From the IMG/VR virus record IMGVR_UViG_3300037743_000227: a stretch of DNA of 64,000 nucleotides. One strand, given 5' to 3'. This document shows, one piece after another, positions 13,250 through 63,229 of the stretch (position 1 is its first letter; the number at the start of each line of letters is the position of its first letter). The notes beneath the pieces are model-generated. The model was given only the letters and a program-made list of their open reading frames with translations. It did no database searches and was not told where the DNA came from. The translations under genes were made by a program, and so were the position numbers. Source of the DNA: an uncultured virus (IMG/VR IMGVR_UViG_3300037743_000227) (taxonomy: Duplodnaviria > Heunggongvirae > Uroviricota > Caudoviricetes).

Positions 13250-16200
13250 TTACAGGGGCACGATGGGTGGTCGGGCGAGCCGTGTATCCGTGCCCGCGCC
13301 GTGGTCGATCTGGACGCCGTTGATGCCGCGCTCCACCGTGGCTTCCTGTGGGGTCACCAACTGGTATTCGGCGAAGTGCAACTCAGGGTTGGTGTTGGTG
13401 TTGCCTCCGAAGGCGGACGCGGCGAGCCCGATCGCGCCGGAATCGATGGTGCCCTCAGTGGTGACCGTCTGGTCGTTGTGCCAGATCGTGACGGGCTCAA
13501 TCCGGTCCACGGGCCACACCCGCATCAGCACCCGGTGCCCGATCAGCCGTACCCGCACCCAGAATTCGTCATCCGCGGTGTACGTCCACGGCAGCGTGAC
13601 CGTGCTGCCGATCTGCGTGGTGTTGCGCGTGACGCTCGTGAACATGTTGCCGCTGGTGCCGAAGTGGACCCGGGCCCGGTAGTAGTCCCCCGATGCCCGC
13701 AGGAGCACAGCAGACAGCAGCGAATCCCCAGTGGCGACCTGGTCCACCCACACGCGGGTCAGGACCTCGACGTCTTCCAGGTCCTCAACGACGAACTGGA
13801 ACCGGATCGTGGAAGGGGCCGACTGCAAGGTTACGACGCCTGATTCGCCGTCCACGGACCGGTCGGAGGCGTCCCCGCCGGCGGCTGTGTCCCAGGCGTG
13901 GCCCGAGTCGGAGGCGCCCCAGCCGTCTGTCTCGGTGCGCGCGAACACATCCCATACCAGGGGCTCCATGCTGGCCACGCGCACCACTTCGCCGGAGGAT
14001 CCGCCGCGCGGTGACAGGCGCAGGTCGAAGGGCACTTCCTGCGGCTCCGACCACTCTTCGACCGGCCGCAGCCATACCTCGTCGGCGAACAGCACATCGG
14101 TGGGCGGCGGGAAGTCAGGGACGGTCGGGGCCAGGTTCGCGTTTTCGGCACCGGCCGGGGCCTCCGCGGTGACCTCGAACCACGTCCAGGTGTCGGCCTG
14201 AATCGTCTTGTCGTTGGTGCTCACATCCAGGAAGTTGAAAGCGCCGTCAAACCAGTTCAGGTTCAGGCTGACGCGCCGGGTGGTGGCACAGCGCAGCCAT
14301 CCGTTCAGGACATACGTGCGGCCCTCTGTCACCGGGACCATGTCCGACCCCGCGTTAGGGAATTCTTCCACTCCATCAGGGGTGATCTGCAGCGACCACG
14401 CCCCGCCGAACTGCGCACCCTCAGGCGTGAGGACCCGTTCGATCTCGGCACCGTTCCCCACCCAGCCGGACAGGTCCGTCTCGAAGTCTCCGTTGCTGCT
14501 GATGGGCTGGGCGGAGCCGACCCATTCCGCAGAGAAGAAAGTCACCGGCTGGCGCGTATGGACCACGAGGTCCGTGTCGTCCTCGTCGACGTCGTACACC
14601 AGGACACTTCCCGCAGTGTCGGCCCGGTCCGGGAGGTCCGGCCCGGACACGACCATGGAGAACACCACGTCGTCGATGAACGCCGCGTCGGCGCCGTCCG
14701 ACACCGCCGCGTCTTTCTCGTACCGGAAGGTGACCGTGGACGCTGTGGTGACGTCGAGGTCGCCGGAGTGCTGCCAGTCCACATCCCCCGACACCGTCAG
14801 CACCTCGACATCGCCGACGAAGACCCGGAAGAAGTCGAAGCCCTCCTCGCTGTCGACCTTGTACCAGAAAGACAGGGCGACGGCCTGGTCCGGCACTTCG
14901 ACGATCGCGTCGGACGTCTGATCGTCGAGGATCTCGCCTGACCGGAAGGACCAGTCACCGAACCGCGCCTCCGTGTTGGTGCGGACCCATGGCTCGTCTC
15001 CGCCGTCAGTGATGGCGATGGACCGGTCGGCGTCCTCGAAATCGTCGGACAGCAGCGTCCCGGTCTGCGTGACGTGAGCGATCGTCCAGGGTGAGGCAGG
15101 TGAGCAGGTCAAGGTGACCTCCCACAGAAAAGCGTTCAGCCGCTCCTCATAGCCCTCGACGATCAGGTCGATATCGTCGGCAGGCAGCCAGTCGGGCGGG
15201 TTGATGATGCGGATCAGGTCGCCCTCGCGGACCCGCATCACGTCCTCGATGAGATCCCGCATCCGCTCGTTGCCCAGCTTGAGGGTGATGCGCGGGTAGC
15301 GCAGCTCATCGACCGTGCCCAAGTGCAGCCGCCACCCGGCCTGATCGGGTAGTTGGTCGTCGTCGGCGACGTTGATGGTGGGCGTCGAAGGGTAGCGGCC
15401 GACCCCGTCCGGGTCCTGCTCCGGGTTTTGGGTGTTGAGCTGCCCGGTCTCCTGGATGGCCTCGGCGAACGAGCCGCCTTTCCGGGTGACTGTGACGGCG
15501 TTGCGGGTGCGCTGGTCGTCATCGGTGGGGTCGATGGGCGGGAAGATCTCACCATTCGCGTAGTCCAGCACCAGGACGGGCTCCTGGTTGTAGAGGGTCT
15601 CGCGTGCCCGCATCGCCACTGCGACGGCCTCACGCTGCTCCCCGAGGAGTGCCAGATCCGCCTCTGCGGGCTCACGTAGCAGCTCCGCGAAGTCACCGGA
15701 CGACTGCGACCCCATAGGCGTCTGAGCAGCACCGGTGATCAGGCTGGGAATGCCCTCCTCGACCAGGAGGCGGCGCGTCCGCTCACGGGCCGACTCGCCT
15801 TCAAAGCCCAACGTGGCGTGCAGGCCGGTCAGGGCGTTGGAGTAGGCGCCGGAGCCGCCGGCATTGCCCCACGCCGACAGGTGCCCGAAGCGCATGCCGG
15901 CCAGGTCCTGCCCGAAGGTGGTGGAGATCCGCCTGAAGTGCCCGGCGGCGCCGGCGAACGTGTTGCCGTTGTCGTGGCCCGCCGAGCCGTCCAGAGTGCG
16001 CCACCCGAACTCCCAGTCCACGTTCGCGCCGTCCTGGAACACGCTGACGAAGAAGACCCGCCAGTCGTCGAGCATCGTGGGTTCCCCGACGCTCAGTGCG
16101 CCGTCCCGTGAGGCGATCTCGGTACCCAACTGGACGCCGTCGCTGTCGAACACGCGCAGCCGCAGCCGTGGGTTGTCGGACACCGTGGACGCCGAGACGA

Positions 16201-18304
16201 TCCACTCCGAGGCGGTGCCCGTCGTGAAGAAGCGGAGCAGTTGCTGCTCCTCGGTGCCCTCCGGGAAGTCGTCGGTGGGCATCCGGAGCAGCATCATCAC
16301 CGACCACGCCTCGGTGTCCACCGCGGGCACGGTGGCCCCCCGCATGAATGGGGCGTCGCCGAACTGTGCGGTGCCGGCGCCGGTCGACTCCAGCACCATC
16401 GGCAGCGGGTCCGAGCCGGGGACGTCGCCGTCCTCGCCGAATTTGAAACCGCCGATGCGCAGCGACTGGCCGCCCGCCACCGCGGTCACAGCGCGCCGTG
16501 CGCCCGTCGTGCCCGTCTCCTCGAAGCTCCAGTACGCCACCGGGAACAGTGAGGGGATGTAGCGGCGCAGCAGGGAGCGGATGGGGTAGTCGCCCTGGTT
16601 GAGGCGCCGCAGGATGCCCTGGGCGTCGACAGGCACCCATACGTCAGTGTCTGAGATGTCCCAGCGGGCGGGCCACTCGGAGATCTCTCCGGCGTCACGG
16701 ATCGTGTCGTCCAGGCCGGTTGGCTCACGCACGGACAGGTCACCGAAGTGCACGGTGACCGGGACATCGGTGTGGGAGGCGTTGATCTGCGCGAAGCACG
16801 CGATCTCACCGGACTGGGTGACGAGGTCGGTGTGGGCCTGGCTGTGCCACACCGCGGGCTCCTGCTCCCCGTCGGCCCACACCCGCATCCGCACTTCGGG
16901 CCCTTCGACCTGGATGCGGATCCGCAGCGGCTCGTCAACGGCGTAGACCAGGTTGGGCACGACGGTGCCCTGCGCGATGTCGGTCTGTACCCCGTCGACG
17001 ACTGCGATGATAGAGGTGGCGACGCGCAGCCCTTGACCGTCCGGCAGCCCGGAGTCACCCGCGAACCACACGAGGCAGCCGAGGAAGGTGTCGGATACGG
17101 GGTCGACGCGGACGAAGAGGCCGCCGAAGACTGCGGCGAGGCCGAAGCGGGTCAGGGTGCGCTGGTCGGTCGCCACGGTGAAGGTGGCGTCCACGTCCTC
17201 AAGGTCGACGCCTGTGGTGCGGATGGCCCGGATCTCGCTGGTGGTGGGCATCGACATGCGTCCGGTGCCGCCGGTGACCGAGTAGTCGGCGGCAGGGGTG
17301 GCGCCCGCGAAGTCGTAGATGACCCAGTCCTGGCCGGTGTCTGCGGCGCCCCAGCCGTCCGATTCGGTGCGGTTGAACGTGTCGACGACTGTTGGGGCAG
17401 GTTCGGTCACGGTGATCGCCTCGACGTTGTCGAAGCGCAGCTCCGGGGCTGTGTTGGTGTTGCCGGTGTTGCTGAATGACCGGGTGCCCACGTTGGCGGC
17501 GGCCGTCAGATCCTCGTCGATGGCCTCCACATGCCACACGCTCGGCTCTGTGTCTGTGGCAGCCCATATCCGGGCCCTTAGCGTTGTGCCGTTCGCTTGG
17601 AAGCGCACCCTGTAGAAGGTTTCGGCGGTGTGCGTGAGTGTGGTGGTGAATGTGGCGAGCTGGGTTTCGACGTTCGCTACGCGTTTCCGCAGGGTCAGTA
17701 CGATGCCTGCGCTCGTTGTGAAGTCGACTCGCGTCATGTAGAAGTTGGCGTTGTTGACAGCGCGGAGGAGAGGCCCGCCGAACAGGCTGGCGCCCGTGGC
17801 CAGTTGGTCGGTTGCCACGTCTACAGACAGGTCGATGTTCGCGCTCGGTGCTGGCACCAGGGTGAGGTGTGCGATGCCCGTGGCCGGCTGGCTGACCGCC
17901 CCGTAGCCGCCGCCCACGCTGAAGTCGGCCGCTGCGCCGGTGGTGGTCCACGTCTGACCGGTGTCTGTGGTGCCCCAGCCGCCGGACACGTTGCGCGTGA
18001 ACGTGTCCACCAGCTCGGGGACGGGTGCGCCGACTTGGAGCAGGATCGGGGTGTTCTTCCCGATCTTCCCGAACAGATCGGAGCGTGGGTTCTTCGGGCT
18101 GTAGCGGCCGGACACGTCCGGGTTCACGCGGGAGCGGCCGTTGTTGAGGCGCAGCTTCAGGCTGGAGGGGTCGGCGCTGGATGCCTCGTCAGGGCGGCCG
18201 AGGGTGATGACATGGTCCTCGGTGAGCCGCGCATCCGGCGTGATCTCGTTCCACTGGCCGTCGTAGAAGAGCCAGAAGGAGATGTCCGGGGGGAACGTGG
18301 TCAC
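13250..18304 (-). CDS. Large multidomain tail-tip/baseplate protein with lectin/CBM-like domains
   Basis: Directly after the tape measure gene; GRPDEASSADPS...LNN...YSPKNPRS N-terminus; three D-x-F-x-R...GWG...D[TS]G..W repeats; NGDFETDLSGW CBM-like module. Confidence 0.85.
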   Translation of the reverse strand: MTTFPPDISFWLFYDGQWNEITPDARLTEDHVITLGRPDEASSADPSSLKLRLNNGRSRVNPDVSGRYSPKNPRSDLFGKIGKNTPILLQVGAPVPELVDTFTRNVSGGWGTTDTGQTWTTTGAAADFSVGGGYGAVSQPATGIAHLTLVPAPSANIDLSVDVATDQLATGASLFGGPLLRAVNNANFYMTRVDFTTSAGIVLTLRKRVANVETQLATFTTTLTHTAETFYRVRFQANGTTLRARIWAATDTEPSVWHVEAIDEDLTAAANVGTRSFSNTGNTNTAPELRFDNVEAITVTEPAPTVVDTFNRTESDGWGAADTGQDWVIYDFAGATPAADYSVTGGTGRMSMPTTSEIRAIRTTGVDLEDVDATFTVATDQRTLTRFGLAAVFGGLFVRVDPVSDTFLGCLVWFAGDSGLPDGQGLRVATSIIAVVDGVQTDIAQGTVVPNLVYAVDEPLRIRIQVEGPEVRMRVWADGEQEPAVWHSQAHTDLVTQSGEIACFAQINASHTDVPVTVHFGDLSVREPTGLDDTIRDAGEISEWPARWDISDTDVWVPVDAQGILRRLNQGDYPIRSLLRRYIPSLFPVAYWSFEETGTTGARRAVTAVAGGQSLRIGGFKFGEDGDVPGSDPLPMVLESTGAGTAQFGDAPFMRGATVPAVDTEAWSVMMLLRMPTDDFPEGTEEQQLLRFFTTGTASEWIVSASTVSDNPRLRLRVFDSDGVQLGTEIASRDGALSVGEPTMLDDWRVFFVSVFQDGANVDWEFGWRTLDGSAGHDNGNTFAGAAGHFRRISTTFGQDLAGMRFGHLSAWGNAGGSGAYSNALTGLHATLGFEGESARERTRRLLVEEGIPSLITGAAQTPMGSQSSGDFAELLREPAEADLALLGEQREAVAVAMRARETLYNQEPVLVLDYANGEIFPPIDPTDDDQRTRNAVTVTRKGGSFAEAIQETGQLNTQNPEQDPDGVGRYPSTPTINVADDDQLPDQAGWRLHLGTVDELRYPRITLKLGNERMRDLIEDVMRVREGDLIRIINPPDWLPADDIDLIVEGYEERLNAFLWEVTLTCSPASPWTIAHVTQTGTLLSDDFEDADRSIAITDGGDEPWVRTNTEARFGDWSFRSGEILDDQTSDAIVEVPDQAVALSFWYKVDSEEGFDFFRVFVGDVEVLTVSGDVDWQHSGDLDVTTASTVTFRYEKDAAVSDGADAAFIDDVVFSMVVSGPDLPDRADTAGSVLVYDVDEDDTDLVVHTRQPVTFFSAEWVGSAQPISSNGDFETDLSGWVGNGAEIERVLTPEGAQFGGAWSLQITPDGVEEFPNAGSDMVPVTEGRTYVLNGWLRCATTRRVSLNLNWFDGAFNFLDVSTNDKTIQADTWTWFEVTAEAPAGAENANLAPTVPDFPPPTDVLFADEVWLRPVEEWSEPQEVPFDLRLSPRGGSSGEVVRVASMEPLVWDVFARTETDGWGASDSGHAWDTAAGGDASDRSVDGESGVVTLQSAPSTIRFQFVVEDLEDVEVLTRVWVDQVATGDSLLSAVLLRASGDYYRARVHFGTSGNMFTSVTRNTTQIGSTVTLPWTYTADDEFWVRVRLIGHRVLMRVWPVDRIEPVTIWHNDQTVTTEGTIDSGAIGLAASAFGGNTNTNPELHFAEYQLVTPQEATVERGINGVQIDHGAGTDTRLARPPIVPL

Positions 18305-27167: not shown

Positions 27168-27446
27168 ATGGTGAATACCGCACCGCCAGACACGGCGCGC
27201 TCCAACCTCGCAGAGCGGGTGCGCGCATCCCGGCTACCAGCCCCCGCAGACCGGGCACGGATACGCCGCACCGCCCGCGCCACGCTGAGGGATTTCGCCG
27301 CCGAACTCGACGTCAGCGCGGCCACCGTGTGGCGCTGGGAGCAAGGAGCAGAGCCCCGCCTCGACCACGCCATCGCCTACCGGGGGCTCTTGGATGAAAT
27401 CCAGGCCGCGACCGGGACCACACGCGGAGAGGGCGTTTCGCCATGA
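27168..27446 (+). CDS. XRE-family HTH regulator
   Basis: TLRDFAAELDVSAATVWRWEQGAEP. Confidence 0.85.
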   Translation: MVNTAPPDTARSNLAERVRASRLPAPADRARIRRTARATLRDFAAELDVSAATVWRWEQGAEPRLDHAIAYRGLLDEIQAATGTTRGEGVSP

Positions 27447-27838
27447 CCAGCCTCGCCAAGCCCACTCCTGACACCCCATGCGAGCACCCGGAACCCGTCG
27501 CCGTCACCAGCCACGCCGACCCAGGCCGCGTCGAGTACTGCTCAGGGTGCAGCAGCCTCATCACCACCGTGTACGAGCCCGCGATGTGGCCACGCCTCGT
27601 CGAGACCGGGCAGCGAGAAGAGCTGTGCGAGTGGCTACGGGCCAACGGCATCAACCCTGACTGTGTGCCCATCCACAACGAGATCAGCGTCGAAACCAGC
27701 GCCAACAGCACGGGACTTATCCAGTACACCGCCTACCTGCTCACTGCTGACGGCCACAAATACCTCGACCCCGAGACCGACGACGCTGCCCAGGAGCAGC
27801 GCACCGTGCCGCTCGTCGCCCCACCGGCGCACTGGTAG
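27443..27838 (+). CDS. Hypothetical protein
   Basis: ATGA overlap; CEH...CSGC; LCEWLRANGINP. Confidence 0.7.
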   Translation: MTSLAKPTPDTPCEHPEPVAVTSHADPGRVEYCSGCSSLITTVYEPAMWPRLVETGQREELCEWLRANGINPDCVPIHNEISVETSANSTGLIQYTAYLLTADGHKYLDPETDDAAQEQRTVPLVAPPAHW

Positions 27839-27852
27839 CCGGAGAGCATCTG

Positions 27853-28599
27853 ATGGCCTCCGACCGCATCCAGACCACGATCACCTGCCCGGCCTGCACG
27901 GAGGAGATCACCATCCCCACCCGGGCGCAGTGGCACGGCGACGGAACCGGCACGGTCACCTTCGACACATCCGCCGTCCGCGCCCACATCGCCCAGCACC
28001 ACACCGAACAGGAGCACCCCGTGACGCGATTCGCCCTGGATACCGAGTTCATCGAGGACGGCCGAACGATCGACCTCGTCTCCATCGCCCTCGTCGCCGA
28101 AGACGGCCGCGAGCTGTACGCCGTCAGCAGCAAGTTCAGCCAGGCCAAGCTGCTGGCGAACCCGTGGCTTGCCGAGAACGTGTGGCCGTCCCTGCCGACC
28201 GTCAAGCACGGCAAGGGAGTGACGTGCCGTTGCATCAACGGCAACAAGTACGGGCACCTCGACCTCGATCACCCGGACGTGCGGCCGCGCGCGCAGATCG
28301 CCCGCATGGTCCGCGACTTCGTCCTCGGCACCGACCCCGACATGCTGCCGCACGTCGAGCTGTGGGCCGACTACAGCGCCTACGACCACGTCGCGCTCGC
28401 CCAGTTGTACGGGCGGATGATCGACCTGCCGGAGGGCATGCCGATGACGACGTTCGATGTACGGCAGGCCGCCGCCTACAACACGGAATGGGGCAGCTCG
28501 CTCCCGGAGCAGCAGAGCGGGCTGCACAACGCGTTGGAGGACGCCCGGCACGTCATGGCGCAACTGCGCCACCTCGGCATCGTCGGGAGCCCCGCATGA
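27853..28599 (+). CDS. DEDD 3'-5' exoribonuclease (Rv2179c/RNase AS-like) with N-terminal CxxC extension
   Basis: ALDTEFIEDG...LVSIALV, AYDHV, HNALEDARH; second RBS plus GTG at 28021. Confidence 0.8.
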   Translation: MASDRIQTTITCPACTEEITIPTRAQWHGDGTGTVTFDTSAVRAHIAQHHTEQEHPVTRFALDTEFIEDGRTIDLVSIALVAEDGRELYAVSSKFSQAKLLANPWLAENVWPSLPTVKHGKGVTCRCINGNKYGHLDLDHPDVRPRAQIARMVRDFVLGTDPDMLPHVELWADYSAYDHVALAQLYGRMIDLPEGMPMTTFDVRQAAAYNTEWGSSLPEQQSGLHNALEDARHVMAQLRHLGIVGSPA

Positions 28600-37411: not shown

Positions 37412-38218
37412 ATGACGACCTCCCGCACCCCCAGCCTCCGGCTGGTCATGCTGCTCCGGGTCTCCACCGCCGGACAACTCGACGGCTACGGGCTCGAGGC
37501 CCAAGAGAAGGACTGCCGGAAGTGGGCGCGCGCCGCCGGGCACCGCATTGTCCGCGTCTGCACCGATGGCGGGATCACCGGGAAGGCAGGCGACGACGAA
37601 CGACCCGGACTGACCGAGGCGCTCCAGATGCTCGCCAACGGAGAGACTGACGGGCTCCTCGCCCCGAACCTCGACCGCATCGCCCGACAGCTCACCCAGC
37701 AAGAAGCCATCCTCTCCGTCGTGTGGGCCCACGGGGCGCGCGCGTTCACCGCAGACCGGGGCGAGCACCTGCCCGACGATGACGACGACCCGATGCGCAC
37801 GTTCGTGCGGCAGGTCATGGGAGCAGCCGCGCAACTCGAGCGCGGGCTCATCGTGAAGCGACTCAAGGGCGGTCGTCGCACCAAGGCGGCGGCCGGCGGG
37901 TACGCGCACGGCGCGCCTGCTTACGGAGAGAAAGCCGTGAACAAGGAACTCACAGTGGACTCCGGCGAAGCGGAAGTTCTCGAGCGGATGCGGGAGTGGG
38001 AGGCCGAAGGTGTGAGCATCCGCGGCATCGCGGCCCGGCTGAACGAGCAGGGTGTCCCGAGCAAGCGCGGCGGCAAATGGCACCCGACCACCGTGGCCCG
38101 GCTGCTCAATCCGCAGGCGCGGGAAGCGGCACGGCGGCAGTCCGAAGCAGCTCGAGCAGCAGAGCGGCAGCAGACCAAGCGCAACCGCGCCGATCGCATG
38201 TTGTCCCGTCTGACCTGA
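37412..38218 (+). CDS. Serine recombinase (resolvase domain plus short recombinase domain)
   Basis: LRVSTAGQ catalytic Ser, RPGL, LDRIAR, AQLERGLI, SIRGIAARLNEQGVPSKRGGKWHPTTV. Confidence 0.92.
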   Translation: MTTSRTPSLRLVMLLRVSTAGQLDGYGLEAQEKDCRKWARAAGHRIVRVCTDGGITGKAGDDERPGLTEALQMLANGETDGLLAPNLDRIARQLTQQEAILSVVWAHGARAFTADRGEHLPDDDDDPMRTFVRQVMGAAAQLERGLIVKRLKGGRRTKAAAGGYAHGAPAYGEKAVNKELTVDSGEAEVLERMREWEAEGVSIRGIAARLNEQGVPSKRGGKWHPTTVARLLNPQAREAARRQSEAARAAERQQTKRNRADRMLSRLT

Positions 38219-40868: not shown

Positions 40869-41104
40869 TGGGAGAAGGGTGGGAGATGATCAACGCGAGC
40901 AGGTGCAAGGATGCGCTAGAACTCGCGAGAACCTGCTATCTCGATTCGCGGTCGTTCGAGGTCAAAGCGCTGATCTGCAGGCCAGGACGCGGGCTCCGTC
41001 ACCTGGGGCGTGATGAACCTGATGAACGCCCCTATACCTCTGGCAACCCGCTGAACTGCGGCGCAGGGCCCGCCAGTTCCCCGTCTGGGAGAAGTTTGGG
41101 AAGT
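40869..41104. other. Putative attP with paired arm-type sites
   Basis: TGGGAGAAGGG-TGGGAGA (40869) and TGGGAGAAGTT-TGGGAAG (41086), both with 11-bp period, around the 3' end of int. Confidence 0.55.
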
Positions 41105-42396
41105 GGTGGCGTCCACACACCGCGCGCCAGCAACTTCTCCCACACGCCTTGCAGGTACTCGACGATACGCTCCTCCATCGCCTGGGTCACCATGCTGTAG
41201 ACGCCCTCGATGCCGGGCAGTTCGTGTCCCAGCCGGGCCTCCTTCGCCACCCGCGCGATGTCCGCCCCGGGCTCGTCCAGCAGCTCCCGGTGCCAGTGCC
41301 GCAGCCGGTACAGATCCTGCCCCGCCATCGCCTCAACCGCAGGCAGCTTCGGCCGGGCGAACCTCTCCCAGCCCTTTCGCGGATTGAGCTCGTCGCGCCC
41401 ATCCCGGATCGGATGCCAGTAATCCCGCGCGAATTGTGTGCCCAGCAGCGCCTTACCCGCCTTCGACGGAAACACCCACGGCTTGGCATGGGAGGCCAGC
41501 AGTGCCGTATGCATCTCGTGTAGGAAGGGCGGCACGACGAGTGTGCGGTGCGAGTCGTATTTTGGGGCGGCCAGAGTCGGCGCGCTGTCCACGTAGTACA
41601 GCTGGTACTGCACGCGCAGCGCATGCATGTCCTTGTAGCGCTCGACGGCTTCCTCGCGCCGCTCCGGGGCAGGGTCGGCGGCCGGCCAGCAGGCGGACGC
41701 GTAGCCGCGCTGAAGCCCGTACATCTCGCCAGGCGGGCGCATCGCAGTGAAGGCCACGGTCCAGATGTAGGTCCAGCCGGTGAAGCCCCACACCTCGTAG
41801 GCATTCGAGGCGAGCTGGTGCACGACCTCGATGGGCATGATGCGCTTGACCCGTCGGGTCTGCTTCTTCTCGTACCGGCCGCGGCGCCGCTGCTCGATGA
41901 CGGGAGACTCGGTGCGCATCTTGTACTTGAGGATCGCGTCGTCCATCAGCATCCGGAACAGGCCGAGCAGTTGGCCGGCGTAGTTGTCTGAATAGGCGGT
42001 ACGGACCCGCTTCTTCCACAGGTCGTATTCCAGGGCGGTGATGTCGCCGACGGGCCGCTGGCCCCAGTGCGGGACGATGACGGACCGGAGCATGGATCCG
42101 TAGGTGCGCTGCGAGTTGGGCCTCAGGTCGGCTGCCTCGTACCACAGCCAGCAGTACGTCTCCATGAGCGTCTGGGCCGAGGTGCGCGGGATGGCCTTGC
42201 CGTGACGGACCTCGTACTCACGGTCGAGACCGTACTTGCGGGCCTCATCCTCGTCCTGGAACGGCACGCCCGGTTCGGGCCCGGAGGCGGACTCGTAGCG
42301 CTTCGTCTTGGTGGGCTTGCCATCGTCACCGAGTTTGTACTCGCCGCCCCACCACTTGACGCGGATGCTGTTGCCGCGCACCTCGACGTAAGGCAT
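41032..42396 (-). CDS. int: Tyrosine integrase
   Basis: AFTAMRPPGE (R), APKYDSHR (K), LYRLRH, ARLGH...EGVY. Confidence 0.9.
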   Translation of the reverse strand: MPYVEVRGNSIRVKWWGGEYKLGDDGKPTKTKRYESASGPEPGVPFQDEDEARKYGLDREYEVRHGKAIPRTSAQTLMETYCWLWYEAADLRPNSQRTYGSMLRSVIVPHWGQRPVGDITALEYDLWKKRVRTAYSDNYAGQLLGLFRMLMDDAILKYKMRTESPVIEQRRRGRYEKKQTRRVKRIMPIEVVHQLASNAYEVWGFTGWTYIWTVAFTAMRPPGEMYGLQRGYASACWPAADPAPERREEAVERYKDMHALRVQYQLYYVDSAPTLAAPKYDSHRTLVVPPFLHEMHTALLASHAKPWVFPSKAGKALLGTQFARDYWHPIRDGRDELNPRKGWERFARPKLPAVEAMAGQDLYRLRHWHRELLDEPGADIARVAKEARLGHELPGIEGVYSMVTQAMEERIVEYLQGVWEKLLARGVWTPPLPKLLPDGELAGPAPQFSGLPEV

Positions 42397-53772: not shown

Positions 53773-54626
53773 GCACCGCCAAGCGCCCGCCCCACCACAA
53801 CACGCTGACTTGCTACACCAACTACGGCTGCCGTCTCCCCGACTGCGCCGAGCGCTACCGCGAATGGGACCGCAACCGCCGCGCCGCCCGCAAGGCAGGC
53901 CAGTGGCAGCCGCACGTCGAAGCCGAACCCGTCCGCCAGCACCTGCGCATGCTCAACGACCACGGCATCACCCTCCACCGGGCCGCCGAAATGGCAGGCA
54001 TCGGCCCCCGCTCCCTCCACCCCCTGTTCCAGCCGCAGACCGGACGCCGACGCCGCCACCAGCACACCGTGCGCACGGAAATCGCGGCAAAGATCCTCGC
54101 CATCCGGCCCGAGACCGTCACCCCCGGCAGGGTCGACCCCACCGGCACGGCCCGCCGCATCCAGGCTCTCGTCGCCATCGGCTGGCCCATGCGCTACCTC
54201 GCCGCACACTTCGGCATTGGCGACACCTACGTCCACCAGATCATCCAGCGCAGCACCAAAGACCACCTCGTCCTCGCCGCCACGGCCGAAAAGATCGCGG
54301 CCCGATACGAGCACGTCAAAACGCTGCAGCCCGCACGTCACGGCGTGCGTGCCCGCAACGTCAAGCAGGCCCGCAACATGGCAGCCTCCCGCGGCTGGCC
54401 GCCTCCCAAGTACTGGGCCGACCGCATGGACGTCATCGACGACCCCGACTTCGAACCGGAGTACCGGAAGCTCCGCGCCGAAATCCTCGCCGAAGAAGCC
54501 CACTGGCTGATGACCGCTGGCGGCCTCGACCGCGACCAAGCAGCAGCCCGACTCGGCATCGCCCGCTTCACCATCGACCGCGCCCTCCGCGAACACCCCC
54601 AAGACGAGCAGGAGCTGGCCGCATGA
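53769..54626 (+). CDS. Multi-HTH DNA-binding protein with N-terminal Cys/His cluster
   Basis: AAGGAG RBS; HNTLTCYTNYGCRLPDC; several HTH-like segments. Confidence 0.75.
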   Translation: MSTAKRPPHHNTLTCYTNYGCRLPDCAERYREWDRNRRAARKAGQWQPHVEAEPVRQHLRMLNDHGITLHRAAEMAGIGPRSLHPLFQPQTGRRRRHQHTVRTEIAAKILAIRPETVTPGRVDPTGTARRIQALVAIGWPMRYLAAHFGIGDTYVHQIIQRSTKDHLVLAATAEKIAARYEHVKTLQPARHGVRARNVKQARNMAASRGWPPPKYWADRMDVIDDPDFEPEYRKLRAEILAEEAHWLMTAGGLDRDQAAARLGIARFTIDRALREHPQDEQELAA

Positions 54627-56428
54627 GCCGCAACGACAACGACGCATTGACGGTCATGGATTGGTTCTGCGGGGCCGGCGGCTCCTCCCAGGGCATGCAC
54701 TCGATCCCGGGTGTCCGGATGGAGCGGGCGGCGAACCACTGGGAGCGGGCGATCGAGTCGCACGCCGCGAACTTCCCCACCGTCGACCACTACCGCGGCG
54801 ACATCCGCGAAGCACCCGTCGAGACGTGGCCCGCCACCGACATTTTCTGGGCTAGTCCTGAGTGCCCTCAGTGGAGCAACGCCCGCGGTAAGAAGCGGGA
54901 CTTTGACGCCTCTCTCCAGGGCGACCTCTTCGACGGCTTCGGGCCGTCGGATGAGGTGGAGCGCTCCCGCGCGCTCATGGAGGAAGTCCCCATGTACCTG
55001 CGCGGCGTCCAGGAGCGGGGCGGTCTGGTCAAGGCCGGGGTCGTCGAGAACGTCGTGGACGTCCGCGCTTGGGATCAGTGGGACCGGTGGATCGGCGAGA
55101 TCCGGAAGCTCGGCTACGAGACCCGCGTCATCGCCATGAACTCAATGCACGCCGACCCGCGCACGGTGCACAAGGCGCCGCAGTCCCGCGACCGTCTGTA
55201 CGTCGCCTACTGGCACAAGAGCCTGGGCCGCACCCCGGACTGGGACAAGTGGCTCCGCCCGCGCGCATGGTGCACCGGCTGCGACACCTGGGTGCAGGCC
55301 GTACAGCGGTTCAAGCAGCCCGGCCGCGACATGGGCCGCTACCGCCAGCAGTACGTCTACCGCTGCCCGAACGTGGCCTGCCGCAACCAGATCGTCGAGC
55401 CCGAGACGCTGCCCGCCGCGGTCGCCATCGACTGGGGGATCCCCGGCCAGCGCATCGGCGACCGCACCAAGCCCCTCGCCGACAAGACCCTCGCCCGCAT
55501 CCAGGCCGGCCTCGACAAGTTCGCCCGCCCCATCACCCTCGAAGCCGCAGGCAACACCTTCGAGCGTCGCCCCGGCGTCCGCACGTGGCCCGTCGACGCT
55601 CCGCTCACCACCCAGACGACGACGGCGACGAAGGCGATGGCCTACGAGCCGTTCATGGTCCCGGCCGGAGGGACCTGGCGCAACGACCCGTCCAGCGTCC
55701 TCGACCCGATGGCCTGCCGCACCACCCGCGAGAACGACGGTCTGGCCATACCGCCCCTGCTGATCCCGGTGGAGGGCCGGGAGGACAAGAAGCCGGCTTC
55801 CGCGCACGATCCGCTGCGCACGCAGACCGCCCGGAACGAGACCGGCCTCGCCTGGCTGCCGTTCATGGTCACCATGCGCGGCGGTGGCGACCAGCTCCGC
55901 GGTCGCTCCATCGGCGAGCCCGTCGGCACGGTGTCCGCGAACGGCAACCACCACGGCCTCGTCACCCCGAACCTGCCCGCGTTCGTGATGCGCAACAACG
56001 GCAGCAGCGGGGACGGCGGCGAACACTGCACCCGGGCTGATGAGTACTTCCGCACCATGACCACGGCTGGCCACCAGTCGCTCGTCACCTGGGAACACCT
56101 CCTCGTCCCCTACTACGGCAACGGCACGGCGAAGACGGTCCGCGAACCCGTCGGCACGCTCTCCACCCGCGACCGGTACGCCCTCGTACAGGGCGACGTC
56201 GACATCAACGACGTCCTCTTCCGGATGCTGGAGCCCCACGAGATCGGCCGCGCAATGTCCTTCGCCGACCAGTACATCGTCCTCGGCTCCAAGCGCGAAC
56301 GCGTCCGCCAATACGGCAACGCCGTCACCCCCAACTGCGCCGAAGTCATCGTCTGCGCCCTCGTCGAAGCCATCACCGGCGAGGACATCGAGCGGCACAC
56401 CGAACCCGCCTTCGAGGCCGCCGCGTGA
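54623..56428 (+). CDS. DNA (cytosine-5) methyltransferase, orphan
   Basis: Motif I DWFCGAGG, IV ASPEC, VI VENV, VIII PQSRDR, IX RML, X QYGNAV. Confidence 0.92.
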   Translation: MSRNDNDALTVMDWFCGAGGSSQGMHSIPGVRMERAANHWERAIESHAANFPTVDHYRGDIREAPVETWPATDIFWASPECPQWSNARGKKRDFDASLQGDLFDGFGPSDEVERSRALMEEVPMYLRGVQERGGLVKAGVVENVVDVRAWDQWDRWIGEIRKLGYETRVIAMNSMHADPRTVHKAPQSRDRLYVAYWHKSLGRTPDWDKWLRPRAWCTGCDTWVQAVQRFKQPGRDMGRYRQQYVYRCPNVACRNQIVEPETLPAAVAIDWGIPGQRIGDRTKPLADKTLARIQAGLDKFARPITLEAAGNTFERRPGVRTWPVDAPLTTQTTTATKAMAYEPFMVPAGGTWRNDPSSVLDPMACRTTRENDGLAIPPLLIPVEGREDKKPASAHDPLRTQTARNETGLAWLPFMVTMRGGGDQLRGRSIGEPVGTVSANGNHHGLVTPNLPAFVMRNNGSSGDGGEHCTRADEYFRTMTTAGHQSLVTWEHLLVPYYGNGTAKTVREPVGTLSTRDRYALVQGDVDINDVLFRMLEPHEIGRAMSFADQYIVLGSKRERVRQYGNAVTPNCAEVIVCALVEAITGEDIERHTEPAFEAAA

Positions 56429-56557: not shown

Positions 56558-56583
56558 GGAGGAAAGGAGGAGACGTGACGCAG

Positions 56584-56793
56584 CTAGGACTTCGGCTCGA
56601 CCAGGACGCGCTCTTCGCCGAGGGCTTCAAGGGCGCGCTCGTAGAAGTCCATGCCCACGATGACGGCGACGCGCTTCCCGCGGCTGGTCATGACGGTCGT
56701 CTCGTCGAAGTAGCGGGCGCGCTCGATCGCGTCGGCGAGCGAGTTACGCACGTCCGCGATCTTCTCCTGGTGCTCCTTCTTCGGCGCGGTCAT
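56584..56793 (-). CDS. Phd/YefM-family antitoxin-like protein
   Basis: IADVRNSLADAIERA...TVMTSRGKRVAVIVGMDFYE. Confidence 0.88.
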   Translation of the reverse strand: MTAPKKEHQEKIADVRNSLADAIERARYFDETTVMTSRGKRVAVIVGMDFYERALEALGEERVLVEPKS

Positions 56794-56815
56794 GTCCGGA
56801 GTGTACCTCACGATC

Positions 56816-56855
56816 ATGATGTACATGAGCGCGTTGAGCGCTATGATGTACATGA
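56816..56855. promoter_or_regulatory. Operator pair ATGATGTACATGA x2
   Basis: Exact 13-bp direct repeats at 56816 and 56843, each with the palindrome ATGTACAT. Confidence 0.75.
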
Positions 56856-56952
56856 ACCTGAACGGGGTTGGCACTCGGTGCAAGACGGCCGGGAGGGCTT
56901 GGTTCCGTGCGCCCCGATTCGACAGCGGACGCATGACGACCAGGGAGGGCCC

Positions 56953-57507
56953 TTGCTAGGAGATCTGAACGACCCGTGGTGGCTCGACAAGATCAAGTTC
57001 GGTTCTGGTGTCGCAAAGGCCATAGCGCGACGAATCCAAGCCAGCGCCGGCGGCAGCCAGGCGTGGCCCCTCGACTACGAAGAGATGGCCGACGAGTTCG
57101 AGTTCAGCATTCAGGAACTCCAAGACGCAGTCGCACTCATGACCGCCAGCGGGCACGCGCGCGTCGAACACAACTACCCAGGCCTCAACGGCACGTGGCT
57201 CTTGCTGCACACGCCTGAGCGGCTAATGACGGAAGCCGCCGCCGCGGAAGCCGAGCGAAAGAAGGCGGCTGCACGCGCGGCCAAGATCGCCCTGCGCGGT
57301 GGCCAGGTCCACCGCACGCCAATCCCGGAGGAGATCAAAACCTTCGTTTTCGAGCGCGACGGCCACGCCTGCCTCCGATGCGGCGCCACCGAGGACTTGA
57401 CCCTCGACCACGTCCATCCGTGGTCCATCGGCGGCGCCGACACCCCGGACAACCTGCAGGTCCTCTGTCGCCCCTGCAACAGCAGTAAGGGCGACCGGGT
57501 CGCCTGA
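56953..57507 (+). CDS. HNH endonuclease with N-terminal wHTH-like domain
   Basis: GGGAGG plus TTG; VFERDGHACLRCG...LTLDHVHPWSIGG...NLQVLCRPCNSSKG. Confidence 0.85.
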   Translation: MLGDLNDPWWLDKIKFGSGVAKAIARRIQASAGGSQAWPLDYEEMADEFEFSIQELQDAVALMTASGHARVEHNYPGLNGTWLLLHTPERLMTEAAAAEAERKKAAARAAKIALRGGQVHRTPIPEEIKTFVFERDGHACLRCGATEDLTLDHVHPWSIGGADTPDNLQVLCRPCNSSKGDRVA

Positions 57508-59457: not shown

Positions 59458-60838
<1,381 letters not shown>

Positions 60839-60842
<4 letters not shown>

Positions 60843-61123
60843 ACCAGCCCACCGCCGAGGACATCGCCGCCCTGCGTGCCGACGGCGACCTCCACGACTA
60901 CCTGCTCGCCCTCACCGGCCGCACCCCCGCCCCCAAGCCGGCCCCGCTCGCTGCGGCTCCGGATCCCGGCTATCGGATCGCGCACACCGGCGGCTGGCCC
61001 ATCGGCACCGCCGCCACCGGGCCGACCCCGACGCACGGCCGCTGCACCTGCCCGAAGTGCGCGCAAGCCGACGTCGTCCAACTGCCCCAGCAGCACCAGC
61101 ACCAGACAGGAGAAGCCGCATGA
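60839..61123 (+). CDS. Hypothetical protein
   Basis: ATGA overlaps; CTCPKC. Confidence 0.65.
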
Positions 61124-62574
61124 CCAGCATCGAATGGACCGAGCAAACCTGGAACCCGACCACCGGCTGCGACCGCATCAGCCCCGGCTGCGATAACTGC
61201 TACGCCCTGACGATGGCCAAGCGGCTGAAGGGCATGGGGCAGGCCAAGTACCAGAACGACGGCGACGCCCGCACCTCCGGACCCGGCTTCGGACTCACCG
61301 TCCACCCCGACGTCCTCACGGATCCGCTGCGCTGGAAGAAGCCCCGCCGGATCTTTGTGAATTCAATGTCCGACCTGTTCCATGCCCGGGTACCGGACGA
61401 GTTCATCGCCCGCGTGTGGCAGGTCATGGGAGTCACTCCCCAGCACACTTTCCAGATCCTCACCAAGCGTGCCAAGCGTATGGAGTCCTGGACGAACCGC
61501 TGGTACTCCGGTGAGATCCCCGAGCCCTACGACGTCCGCTCGATCCCCGGATACGAGGGCTACAGCGTGACGACCCACGGGGAAGTCCTCGGTAAGCGCT
61601 CCGACACCCGCGGCGGCTTGAAGCTCGACGCCGGCGAGCAGGGGCACCTCCGCGCGCCGCTCTACCGAGCCGCAGGGCACTCGCCGAAGCGCGAACTCGT
61701 GCACCGCCTCGTTCTCACAGCCTTCGTCCGGCCGCCCCGCCTGGGAGAGCAGGCGTGCCACCGGAACGGTGACCCGTCCGATAACCGCCTCTCCAACCTC
61801 TACTGGGGCACCCAGGGCGACAACTGGCGCGACCGCCTGACCCACGGGAACGGCCGGTCGTACCAGAAGCTCTCCGAGCAACAGGTCTCGCAGATAAGGG
61901 AGCGCCACGCAGCGGGCCAATCCGCCTACTCCATGGCCAAGGACTACGGAGTCTCGGACACCCAGATCCGAAACATCGTGATGAATCGCCAGTGGGCGAC
62001 CGCGCACCTGGTCAAAGTGCCGACCCCGGCTCCGGCCCGCGTCGTGCTGGACAACTGCTGGTTGGGCACGAGCGTCGAGAGCCAGAAGTACGCCGACATC
62101 CGTATACCCGCCCTGCTGGGGGCCCCGGCCGCCGTCCGTTTCCTGTCGTGCGAACCCCTCCTCGGCCCGGTCCGCCTCACCCATCAGGACCACACGGACC
62201 ACGAGCGGGACTGGGACGGCGACTGGATCTGCCTCGGCTGCTCCACGGACGAGGAGCATGTCCCCTGGCGGACCGTTGACCGCCCCAGTCTCGACATCGA
62301 CTGGGTCATCATCGGCGGCGAATCCGGTCCCGGCGCCCGGCCGTTCGATCCCGAGTGGGCGGCCGACCTGATCAGCGACGCCCGCCGAGTCGGCGCGGCC
62401 CCGTTCGTGAAGCAGCTCGGATCGGCTTGGGCCCGCGACTACACCGTGGCCGGGAAGAGCGTGGCCGCCCATGGCGACACCAAGGGCGGCAAACCCGAGC
62501 ACTGGCCGGCCGACCTCCGAGTCCGCGAGTACCCCGTCACCGCTGGAACCGGGCTCCGAGGTGAGGCCGCCTGA
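61120..62574 (+). CDS. DUF5131 (Gp37/Gp68, radical-SAM-like) protein with in-frame NUMOD4-HNH insertion
   Basis: [72 protein letters not shown] insert at about 61531-61995. Confidence 0.9.
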
Positions 62575-62792
62575 TGTCGCCCGTTGATCCGCGACCGCGC
62601 TGCCAGGAGTGCCATCGCCCGCTGCGGCGCCCGTCCCGGTCGGGTTACGGCCCGGTGTGTGAGCGGCGCCGCAACGCCCGCCCCACACCCCCGCCAGCCG
62701 CGCGCAACCCGCCCGCTGCCGCAGCCCCGGCCATCCCGGGGCAGGTCGCCCTCCCGCTTCAGCCCTTCCAACCCACCCTGGAGAGCCTCTGA
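62574..62792 (+). CDS. Small zinc-finger protein (DUF6011-like)
   Basis: CQECHRPL...GYGPVC. Confidence 0.7.
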   Translation: MSPVDPRPRCQECHRPLRRPSRSGYGPVCERRRNARPTPPPAARNPPAAAAPAIPGQVALPLQPFQPTLESL

Positions 62793-63229
62793 TGACCACC
62801 CGAACCCACACCCCCGACCGCGCCAACGACGACGGCTCCACCACCATCCACGTCAAGCGCGCCTGCAACGGCTGCGGCCACCTGCTCGGCGACGTCGACA
62901 ACCGGGACATCACCGACCACGGCGGCCTCACCGACGTCCGCGCCGAATGCGGGCACTGCGCGCCGCTCGTCGCCTTGGAGGCCGCGGGCTGCCGCACCTG
63001 GCAGCTCACCGAGCGCAGCTACCCGCGCGTCGACCACGAGATCGACCGGCTCGGCGTCTTCGCCAAGCAGTTCACCGAGATGGTCGACGGCAAGGTCACC
63101 ACCGTCGGCATGCGCATCGGCGTCAAGCCCGGCCACGTCGTTGCCTGCTTCGGTGACTGGATCATCCGCCACCCCGACGGCCGCTGGTCAGTCCACCCGG
63201 CGCCCGCCGCGAAGGAGGCGCAGCGATGA
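62792..63229 (+). CDS. Hypothetical zinc-ribbon protein
   Basis: CNGCG...CGHC; FGDWIIR. Confidence 0.7.
   Translation: MTTRTHTPDRANDDGSTTIHVKRACNGCGHLLGDVDNRDITDHGGLTDVRAECGHCAPLVALEAAGCRTWQLTERSYPRVDHEIDRLGVFAKQFTEMVDGKVTTVGMRIGVKPGHVVACFGDWIIRHPDGRWSVHPAPAAKEAQR

Follow-up and report, generated by a model that had tools for sequence, protein, structure and literature searches.

Can a homing endonuclease live in frame inside an enzyme gene with neither an intron nor an intein around it? This question is raised by one gene in the window, by which we mean the whole 64,000-nucleotide stretch of viral DNA that was analyzed. The gene (61120-62574, plus strand) is a single open frame encoding 484 aa. 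Its start overlaps the stop of the upstream gene, its own stop overlaps the next start, and DnaC-like and DnaB genes precede it. The source is a temperate tailed actinophage (terminase, portal, capsid, tape measure, and integrases detected), and the nearest named DUF5131 relatives of the protein are from Streptomyces. The parts of the gene are collected in Table 1.

Table 1. Positions in the window of the DUF5131 fusion gene, its domains, and the motifs flanking its loop.
Feature	Position	Strand	Remarks
DUF5131 (phage Gp37/Gp68) radical-SAM-fold gene with in-frame nuclease	61120..62574	+	484 aa
Host N-terminal part, aa 1-117	61120..61470	+	Cys triad C17/C24/C27 at 61168-61200
Approximate co-converted tract, about codons 91-316	61390..62067	+	edges uncertain by several codons
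Upstream conserved motif QILTKR	61453..61470	+	intact in phage gene; inferred family-B target
Variable loop, 194 aa	61471..62052	+	between predicted helix 118-130 and strand 313-318
NUMOD4-like N-terminal part, aa 139-189	61534..61686	+	Pfam on relatives; I-HmuI sequence and fold match
HNH nuclease core	61696..61848	+	H214 at 61759-61761, N235 at 61822-61824
C-terminal helix-turn-helix (HTH), aa 247-292	61858..61995	+	weak Pfam HTH_38, model
Downstream motif N-C-W-L-G (N-V-W-L-G in insert-free alleles)	62053..62067	+	inferred escaped copy of family-A target
Host C-terminal part, aa 312-484	62053..62574	+	SCEPL, GGESG, VKQLG motifs intact

Is the fusion real? The first-pass annotation had named misassembly as an outcome that would overturn it. 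One contig of run X2 covers 61234-62298, through both junctions, with 0 differences, and contigs of runs X1 and X3, from other studies, span one junction each; one of these three runs may be the source of the window. These contigs of other runs, together with the recurrence of the same fusion in many proteins, rule out misassembly. The 76-kb genome has no second copy of DUF5131 or of the insert.

Elsewhere in the phage, a C5 cytosine methylase of 600 aa is encoded at 54626-56428 (plus strand), 5 kb upstream of the fusion, and no TcmP-like match was found among the scanned neighbor genes. An open reading frame at 56575-57507 (plus) ends in a Cys-rich HNH motif; a small one on the minus strand (56584-56934) overlaps it and looks Phd/YefM antitoxin-like by eye, with no match in PHROGs. 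There are two integrase-like genes (37412-38215, plus, and 41035-42396, minus; phrog_95, with an invertase match, and phrog_1), two genes on the opposite strand within the head gene cluster (27443-28596, plus), one with an RNase H family match, a 1,684-aa protein with a phosphodiesterase PHROG match adjoining the tape measure gene (13253-18304, minus), and an FtsK/SpoIIIE-like gene near the left end (639-2642, plus).

We then asked what the enzyme surrounding the nuclease is. Pfam matches DUF5131 in two stretches (E = 4.8e-81), and the PF07505 score of 272 bits, versus a curated cutoff of 28.9, makes the host part a DUF5131 member. DUF5131 appears as a radical SAM cluster, Megacluster-5-2 of RadicalSAM.org, in the available text of PMC9477430. 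The phage protein has the three-Cys cluster motif C17/C24/C27 and a partial barrel fold, as expected of radical SAM enzymes. An AlphaFold2 model of the fusion, built on a 102-row alignment, reached a pLDDT of 91.5 and a pTM of 0.87; a single-sequence model of one insert-free allele reached a pLDDT of 35. The best fold match of the host part was spore photoproduct lyase (4fhc; Z 12.7, rmsd 3.0 over 195 residues, model residues 1-432), radical SAM structures occupied ranks 2-25 in the fold comparison of the fusion model, and the alignment of the host part to these barrels runs across the insert. The Cys triad columns are 97-100% retained in carriers. A regular-expression search recovered the triad in 100/108 full-length carriers versus 213/216 insert-free alleles and GGESG in 113/127 versus 210/216, the slightly lower counts being those of a carrier set that includes fragments and more distant subfamilies. 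The loop that holds the nuclease is hypervariable and 15-73 aa long in insert-free alleles, compared to 194 aa in the phage fusion. It holds many unrelated sequences; insert-free loops of P0098, P0038, P0071, and their kin (54-59 aa) have a CxC...H pattern and may bind metal.

The module in the loop resembles I-HmuI. Pfam HNH_3 matches residues 193-235 of the fusion (E = 2.4e-5) and scores 26.4 bits against a cutoff of 24.8 when the insert is scanned alone; HTH_38 matches weakly at 247-279. NUMOD4 gives no score on the phage copy and scores on relatives P0092, P0095, and P0082. The insert matches I-HmuI (1u3e) by sequence (phmmer, E = 6.6e-7) and by fold (Foldseek, E = 2.3e-7; VIA-align, Z 13.2, rmsd 2.4 over 104 residues, model residues 137-244). 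H214 and N235 align with the general-base His (H75) and the metal-ligand Asn (N96) of I-HmuI, and H214, N222, N226, and N235 are invariant in 127/127 carriers. The position of D74, described as a metal ligand of I-HmuI in the text available from PMC12724721, is Cys in 94/127 carriers (C213 in the phage copy) and Arg in 31/127. The insert thus lacks the metal-ligand Asp before the His, and its free-standing relatives also have Cys-His at this place. Some related ββα-metal nucleases use Asn as their only protein ligand and have no D74 equivalent. In four DNA pairs, the dN/dS of the HNH core was 0.06-0.13, with synonymous sites near saturation (pS 0.55-0.63); judged by these values, the core is under purifying selection. 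By analogy with I-HmuI-like phage HNH enzymes, as portrayed in excerpts of PMC2988022 and PMC3428280, the insert would be expected to nick DNA.

Copies of the module vary. Many carriers have an extra Cys-rich module within the NUMOD4 part. P0141 and P0142 are without the HTH, and these two, with P0181 and P0222, appear to be decayed, having lost the HTH or had host parts deleted or truncated. The closest free-standing relative of the insert, P0154 (165 aa), is 45% identical to it and has the same subfamily-specific motifs; it is a possible source or escapee of the insert.

Is there any sign that the nuclease is removed by splicing? No Hint splicing domain was matched by Pfam in the fusion, the whole insert being accounted for by nuclease domains in the model and the fold comparison, and a search of 60800-62900 against Rfam gave 0 matches at E values up to 1 and no group I or II ribozyme core. 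Across 54 aligned carriers the junctions vary in their residues and the flanks in their length, with no fixed C/S/T and His-Asn junctions of the intein type. Synonymous divergence is equal in the insert and the host part (pS 0.55-0.63 versus 0.56-0.66 in the four DNA pairs), so there is no sign of an overlapping RNA structure. An intein was rejected for lack of a Hint domain and of conserved junction residues at a fixed site, and a group I or II intron because of the empty Rfam search and the host-like synonymous divergence. The fusion is predicted from these features to stay unspliced, with the nuclease as an extra domain.

The first-pass annotation had described a complete NUMOD4-HNH-HTH nuclease at about 61531-61995, in frame in a radical-SAM-like DUF5131 enzyme, with intact host motifs on both sides, no stop or frameshift, and too little space for Hint domains or a ribozyme core. 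This description holds up well. The open frame, the Pfam matches, and the likeness to I-HmuI in sequence and fold bear out the architecture, and the module was found at residues 139-292 (61534-61995). The Cys triad, QILTKR, SCEPL, GGESG, and VKQLG are all present, the triad and the predicted fold support the radical SAM assignment, and the Pfam and Rfam searches for splicing elements were negative in an open frame. The proposal to define the insertion site with insert-free alleles succeeded for the loop and failed for the codon: no single insertion codon is definable because the module sits within a loop of variable length, and the mobile unit is larger than the module, as described below.

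How widespread is the fusion? The insert was present in 54 of the 121 top proteins (query and its own fragment included), and DUF5131 fusions made up 58 of the 150 best 50%-identity representatives. All proteins longer than 280 aa found with the insert (59/59) are DUF5131 fusions. Carriers with both host halves are split at one profile position, and more than 100 diverse proteins have this same-site fusion. A Streptomyces isolate and a Clostridia MAG are among the carriers with a name, and the nearest named hosts of one other carrier are mostly alphaproteobacterial. Carriers are nonetheless rare: two host-motif scans, each returning the best 80 of about 600 matches, gave one carrier in 151 parsed loci (8/159 unparsed). 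No cultured phage in INPHARED had the fusion, and none of its records spanned 80% of the fusion's length; relatives of the insert there were all free-standing, with 34-39% identity among the 30 matches listed. A scan of genome_contigs with the insert found nothing. In the literature, with subscription journals largely outside the scope of the search, we found no description of an HNH insert in DUF5131, and supplements may list one; the name DUF5131 itself occurred in a single paper. The fusion proteins are named only "gp37" or "DUF5131," so such elements escape annotation.

To follow the insert through its hosts, we compared hosts and inserts separately, with identical sequences and the phage's own fragment (P0002) dropped from the rows. 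The 11 hosts nearest to the phage N-terminal part (85-90% identical) are all insert-free, and the closest inserts (85% and 80% identical over the loop) belong to hosts with 60% and 54% identity. A host tree was built from 325 of 348 rows, with loop and motif columns removed and 23 fragmentary rows left out. The insert label changes 39 times on this tree, at least 14 of these changes being forced by well-supported branches; the phage host falls in a supported clade of 39 rows, 37 of them insert-free. The phage insert is sister to P0003 and P0004 on the insert tree (support 98), and a grouping of the hosts of the three closest inserts was rejected (AU p = 0.0003, 40 chosen rows). For 84/104 carriers an insert-free allele is nearer than the host of their nearest insert, and the insert was found in 0/119 of the hosts nearest to the divergent carrier P0134. 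The survey across the DUF5131 tree that the first-pass annotation had called for thus returned a patchy distribution. Part of the spread is vertical, since host distances rise with insert distances (rho 0.34) and carriers cluster on the host tree (39 label changes versus 92 when shuffled). Taken together, these comparisons indicate that the insert is mobile among DUF5131 hosts.

The insert did not travel alone. DNA identity between the phage gene and carrier L001 is 44-66% over codons 1-90, rises to 64-91% over codons 91-315, and is 55% just after. The protein is likewise a mosaic, carrier-type from about V91 to the NCWLG motif and host-type elsewhere, and this co-converted tract is common to carriers whose hosts are otherwise distant. 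The mobile unit (about codons 91-316) is therefore larger than the nuclease module. Since GC3 is alike in host and insert (0.87-0.89 in both), composition is uninformative on a recent foreign origin.

If the nuclease is a homing enzyme, what does it cut? The first-pass annotation had overlooked an eroded motif flanking the loop and a second nuclease family, and both bear on this question. We defined the canonical downstream motif as N-[VLIAM]-[WH]-[LMIVF]-G directly after the loop, a class set after the first data had been seen. It was present in 210/216 insert-free alleles and in 1/123 scorable carriers of the phage insert's family, hereafter family A (4 unscorable motifs dropped). A second, distant host subfamily kept it in 94/109 insert-free alleles, in a sample with 10/119 unparsed, several of these non-canonical. 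The 127 carriers have 49 variants of the motif, and among 63 conserved host columns erosion is strongest at N312, which falls from 0.98 to 0.42; other columns also fall (N81 to 0.63, S84 to 0.65) in a carrier set that was actively sought and spans more host subfamilies than the first insert-free sample. A Pagel test on the insert tree gave an LR of 58.7 (p = 5e-12), and simulation under independence predicted 15-19 canonical tips where 1 was seen; an independent-pairs test on the same tree, with only 4 supported pairs, was not significant (p = 0.25). Of the carriers found after the hypothesis was set, all 5 new family-A members are non-canonical downstream. One family-A carrier, P0161, is an exception and keeps the canonical motif.

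The loss follows a pattern. Either the N or the next residue is changed, the fourth rarely. When N is replaced and position 2 is aliphatic, the replacement is His, whose codon retains AY, in 11/13 insert-free alleles versus His, Asp, or Tyr in 0/71 carriers (3 regular-expression mis-hits dropped). Carriers have Ser, Cys, Gly, Trp, Phe, and others instead, never a codon ending in AY; the changes are varied, and no AY-NT codon pair is spared. This avoidance of His, Asp, and Tyr suggests a constraint at the level of DNA rather than protein. Avoidance of a DNA site around AAY GTN TGG would give such replacements; protein structure would not. The 76-kb genome has no full predicted target elsewhere, and one 9-base core match lies at 28177. 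Self-immunity is not obligatory in this class of enzymes, because I-HmuI cuts intron-containing genes as well as intronless ones (PMC3428280, in the text available).

A second HNH family (family B), 34% identical to family A, occupies the same loop in P0021, P0082, P0092, L136, L207, L208, and L209; the P0021 host is 84% identical to the phage N-terminal part. In these carriers the picture is reversed. QILTKR is altered to xCLTKR or xxLSKR in 7/7, forms found upstream in 0/216 insert-free alleles, and the downstream N-V-W is kept in 7/7; QILTKR is intact in most family-A carriers. All three new family-B carriers were canonical downstream and altered upstream. If each family has its own target, on opposite sides of the loop, the target would be readable from the substitutions of its carriers. 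Three family-A carriers (P0029, P0128, and L256) also have upstream changes of the family-B type, possibly by successive invasion or escape from both nucleases. P0263 has in the same loop an HNH of a third lineage, on a long branch, and neither of its flanking motifs is altered. On a Streptomyces californicus plasmid (NZ_CP070261.1; L202:3977-5388), a free-standing NUMOD4-HNH-HTH gene, 32% identical to both families, ends with its stop overlapping the start of an insert-free DUF5131 gene. Free-standing HNH genes adjoining DUF5131, here and in Gordonia phage EnalisNailo, were considered as an ancestral stage; this is not supported, because they are 32-39% identical to either family and the neighboring hosts keep both motifs.

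We consider it probable, from these comparisons, that the insert is a splice-free homing element of the I-HmuI type, tolerated in the loop, spreading by nicking at N-V-W-L-G, and immune to itself through its mutated target. In this model, the nuclease would be made as part of one open frame that has no Hint or Rfam intron signal; more than 100 proteins have it at this site. The host gene would supply its expression, and the cost to the host would be small because the predicted barrel folds intact around the module. An insert-free allele on a co-infecting phage or a prophage would be nicked at or near AAY GTN TGG, 3' of the loop, and carrier-templated repair would copy the loop, about 25 codons of the 5' host flank, and the mutated motif. 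Insertion in a variable loop leaves the target unsplit, so codon-changing escape would be required, and only carriers whose motif has acquired amino acid changes would persist; the same has been proposed for the free-standing MobE. A second HNH family invaded the same loop and alters QILTKR upstream instead, presumably by the same mechanism. With less assurance, we favor a broader reading, homing without splicing, in which nucleases of at least two independent HNH families with opposite targets would act as permanent domains of a working enzyme, cutting their own gene family and gaining immunity from rewritten conserved residues.

The first-pass annotation had left two readings standing, a homing element or a domesticated nuclease. 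The former fits every comparative test run (patchy distribution, tree conflict, co-converted flanks, conserved HNH, intact modeled host fold), and the latter fits less well. If domesticated, the nuclease would serve the phage as a cutting partner of a radical SAM domain that modifies or repairs DNA, or as a weapon against co-infecting phages, and its spread would reflect that benefit. Strong purifying selection on the HNH core, the exclusive occurrence of close relatives longer than 280 aa as DUF5131 fusions, the confident whole-fusion model, and the C5 methylase gene upstream would all suit such a role, and a weapon against the DUF5131 of other phages would likewise require a mutated target of its own. 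However, carriers are rare and scattered (the single locus among the best matches of the two scans), two unrelated nuclease families share the loop, flanks are co-converted, and copies such as P0141 and P0142 have decayed, and we regard domestication as unlikely.

Two further explanations compete with the homing element. Phage genes are mosaic, and the loop is hypervariable even without an insert. Could an ancient DNA-binding domain, perhaps a dead HNH with Cys or Arg at the D74 position, be swapped by ordinary recombination, the motif changes being structural? Inserts of family B, equal in size and placed in the same loop, leave N-V-W unchanged. The family-A changes fall at one or another of two or three positions, the conservative replacements His and Asp being avoided, and the catalytic His and Asn are invariant; such passive shuffling is quite unlikely. 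Mature host and nuclease might instead be separated by cryptic processing, through unrecognized RNA splicing, bypass, proteolysis, or an internal start. Hidden frames and unorthodox translation have been described for actinophage insertions (excerpts of PMC11855218), and a conserved Met (M121) lies ahead of the loop. Against this stand the negative Rfam and Hint searches, the variable junctions and flank lengths, the host-like synonymous divergence of the insert, and an HTH with no stop following it, which together leave cryptic processing very unlikely indeed.

If the homing element is what it appears to be, a selfish nuclease forces amino acid changes in a conserved enzyme motif over many phage lineages. 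By the usual view, a homing endonuclease within a gene is harmless only inside an intron or intein and splits its own target; the DUF5131 element seems to do without both. From the erosion of the motifs, the putative target can be placed to within a few codons in each of two families, for which the predictions are opposite, and the same screen could map the targets of other unspliced inserts.

How does the element compare with known systems, which are cited here from excerpts of the papers (general background: PMC3943268, PMC6083498, PMC10448857, and bioRxiv 10.1101/2025.01.02.630785)? Within DUF5131 (phage Gp37-Gp68, PF07505), the host part is a full member with its Cys triad and barrel motifs, and the protein additionally bears a 154-aa nuclease domain. 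With I-HmuI, the HNH homing endonuclease of the SPO1 group I intron, the insert shares domain order, sequence, fold, and the equivalents of H75 and N96. It differs in having Cys or Arg at the D74 position and in being read in frame between host halves, neither a separate open reading frame nor within an intron. The ShiLan domain, an insertion found in actinophage DNA methylases, is mobile and unspliced, has its HNH out of frame, and was proposed to loop out harmlessly (PMC11855218, PMC9957025). Both it and the DUF5131 insert are unspliced, leave the host frame open, and have a patchy, mobile distribution. However, the ShiLan nuclease has a start and a stop of its own in a different frame, whereas that of DUF5131 is an in-frame product, and ShiLan inserts between conserved codons, whereas the DUF5131 insert lies in a variable loop with the adjoining conserved site mutated.

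The lone LAGLIDADG of F-cluster phage methylases (Taj_79; PMC9957025) is also in frame, without a splicing element, and a modeled domain of its own. It is known from nine sequences whose monophyly was not rejected, with no evidence of transfer in the excerpted account, whereas the DUF5131 element is an HNH with over 100 diverse copies and its monophyly was rejected. Among free-standing enzymes, the codon nicked by T4 MobE is conserved but differs in carrier phages (PMC2790892), and insertions of MobE and MobA into genes split those genes (PMC2988022). MobE and SegF have a conserved coding target away from the insertion point and show co-conversion (PMC2790892, PMC2988022), as the DUF5131 element probably does. 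Its carriers present a pattern of this kind, an altered conserved coding motif and signs of co-conversion, around a putative cut site. Unlike MobE and SegF, the DUF5131 nuclease is not a separate open reading frame, its host gene stays whole, and it would target its own gene family. By the features tested, the element appears to work like an intronless homing endonuclease that falls outside the intein, intron, ShiLan, and free-standing classes.
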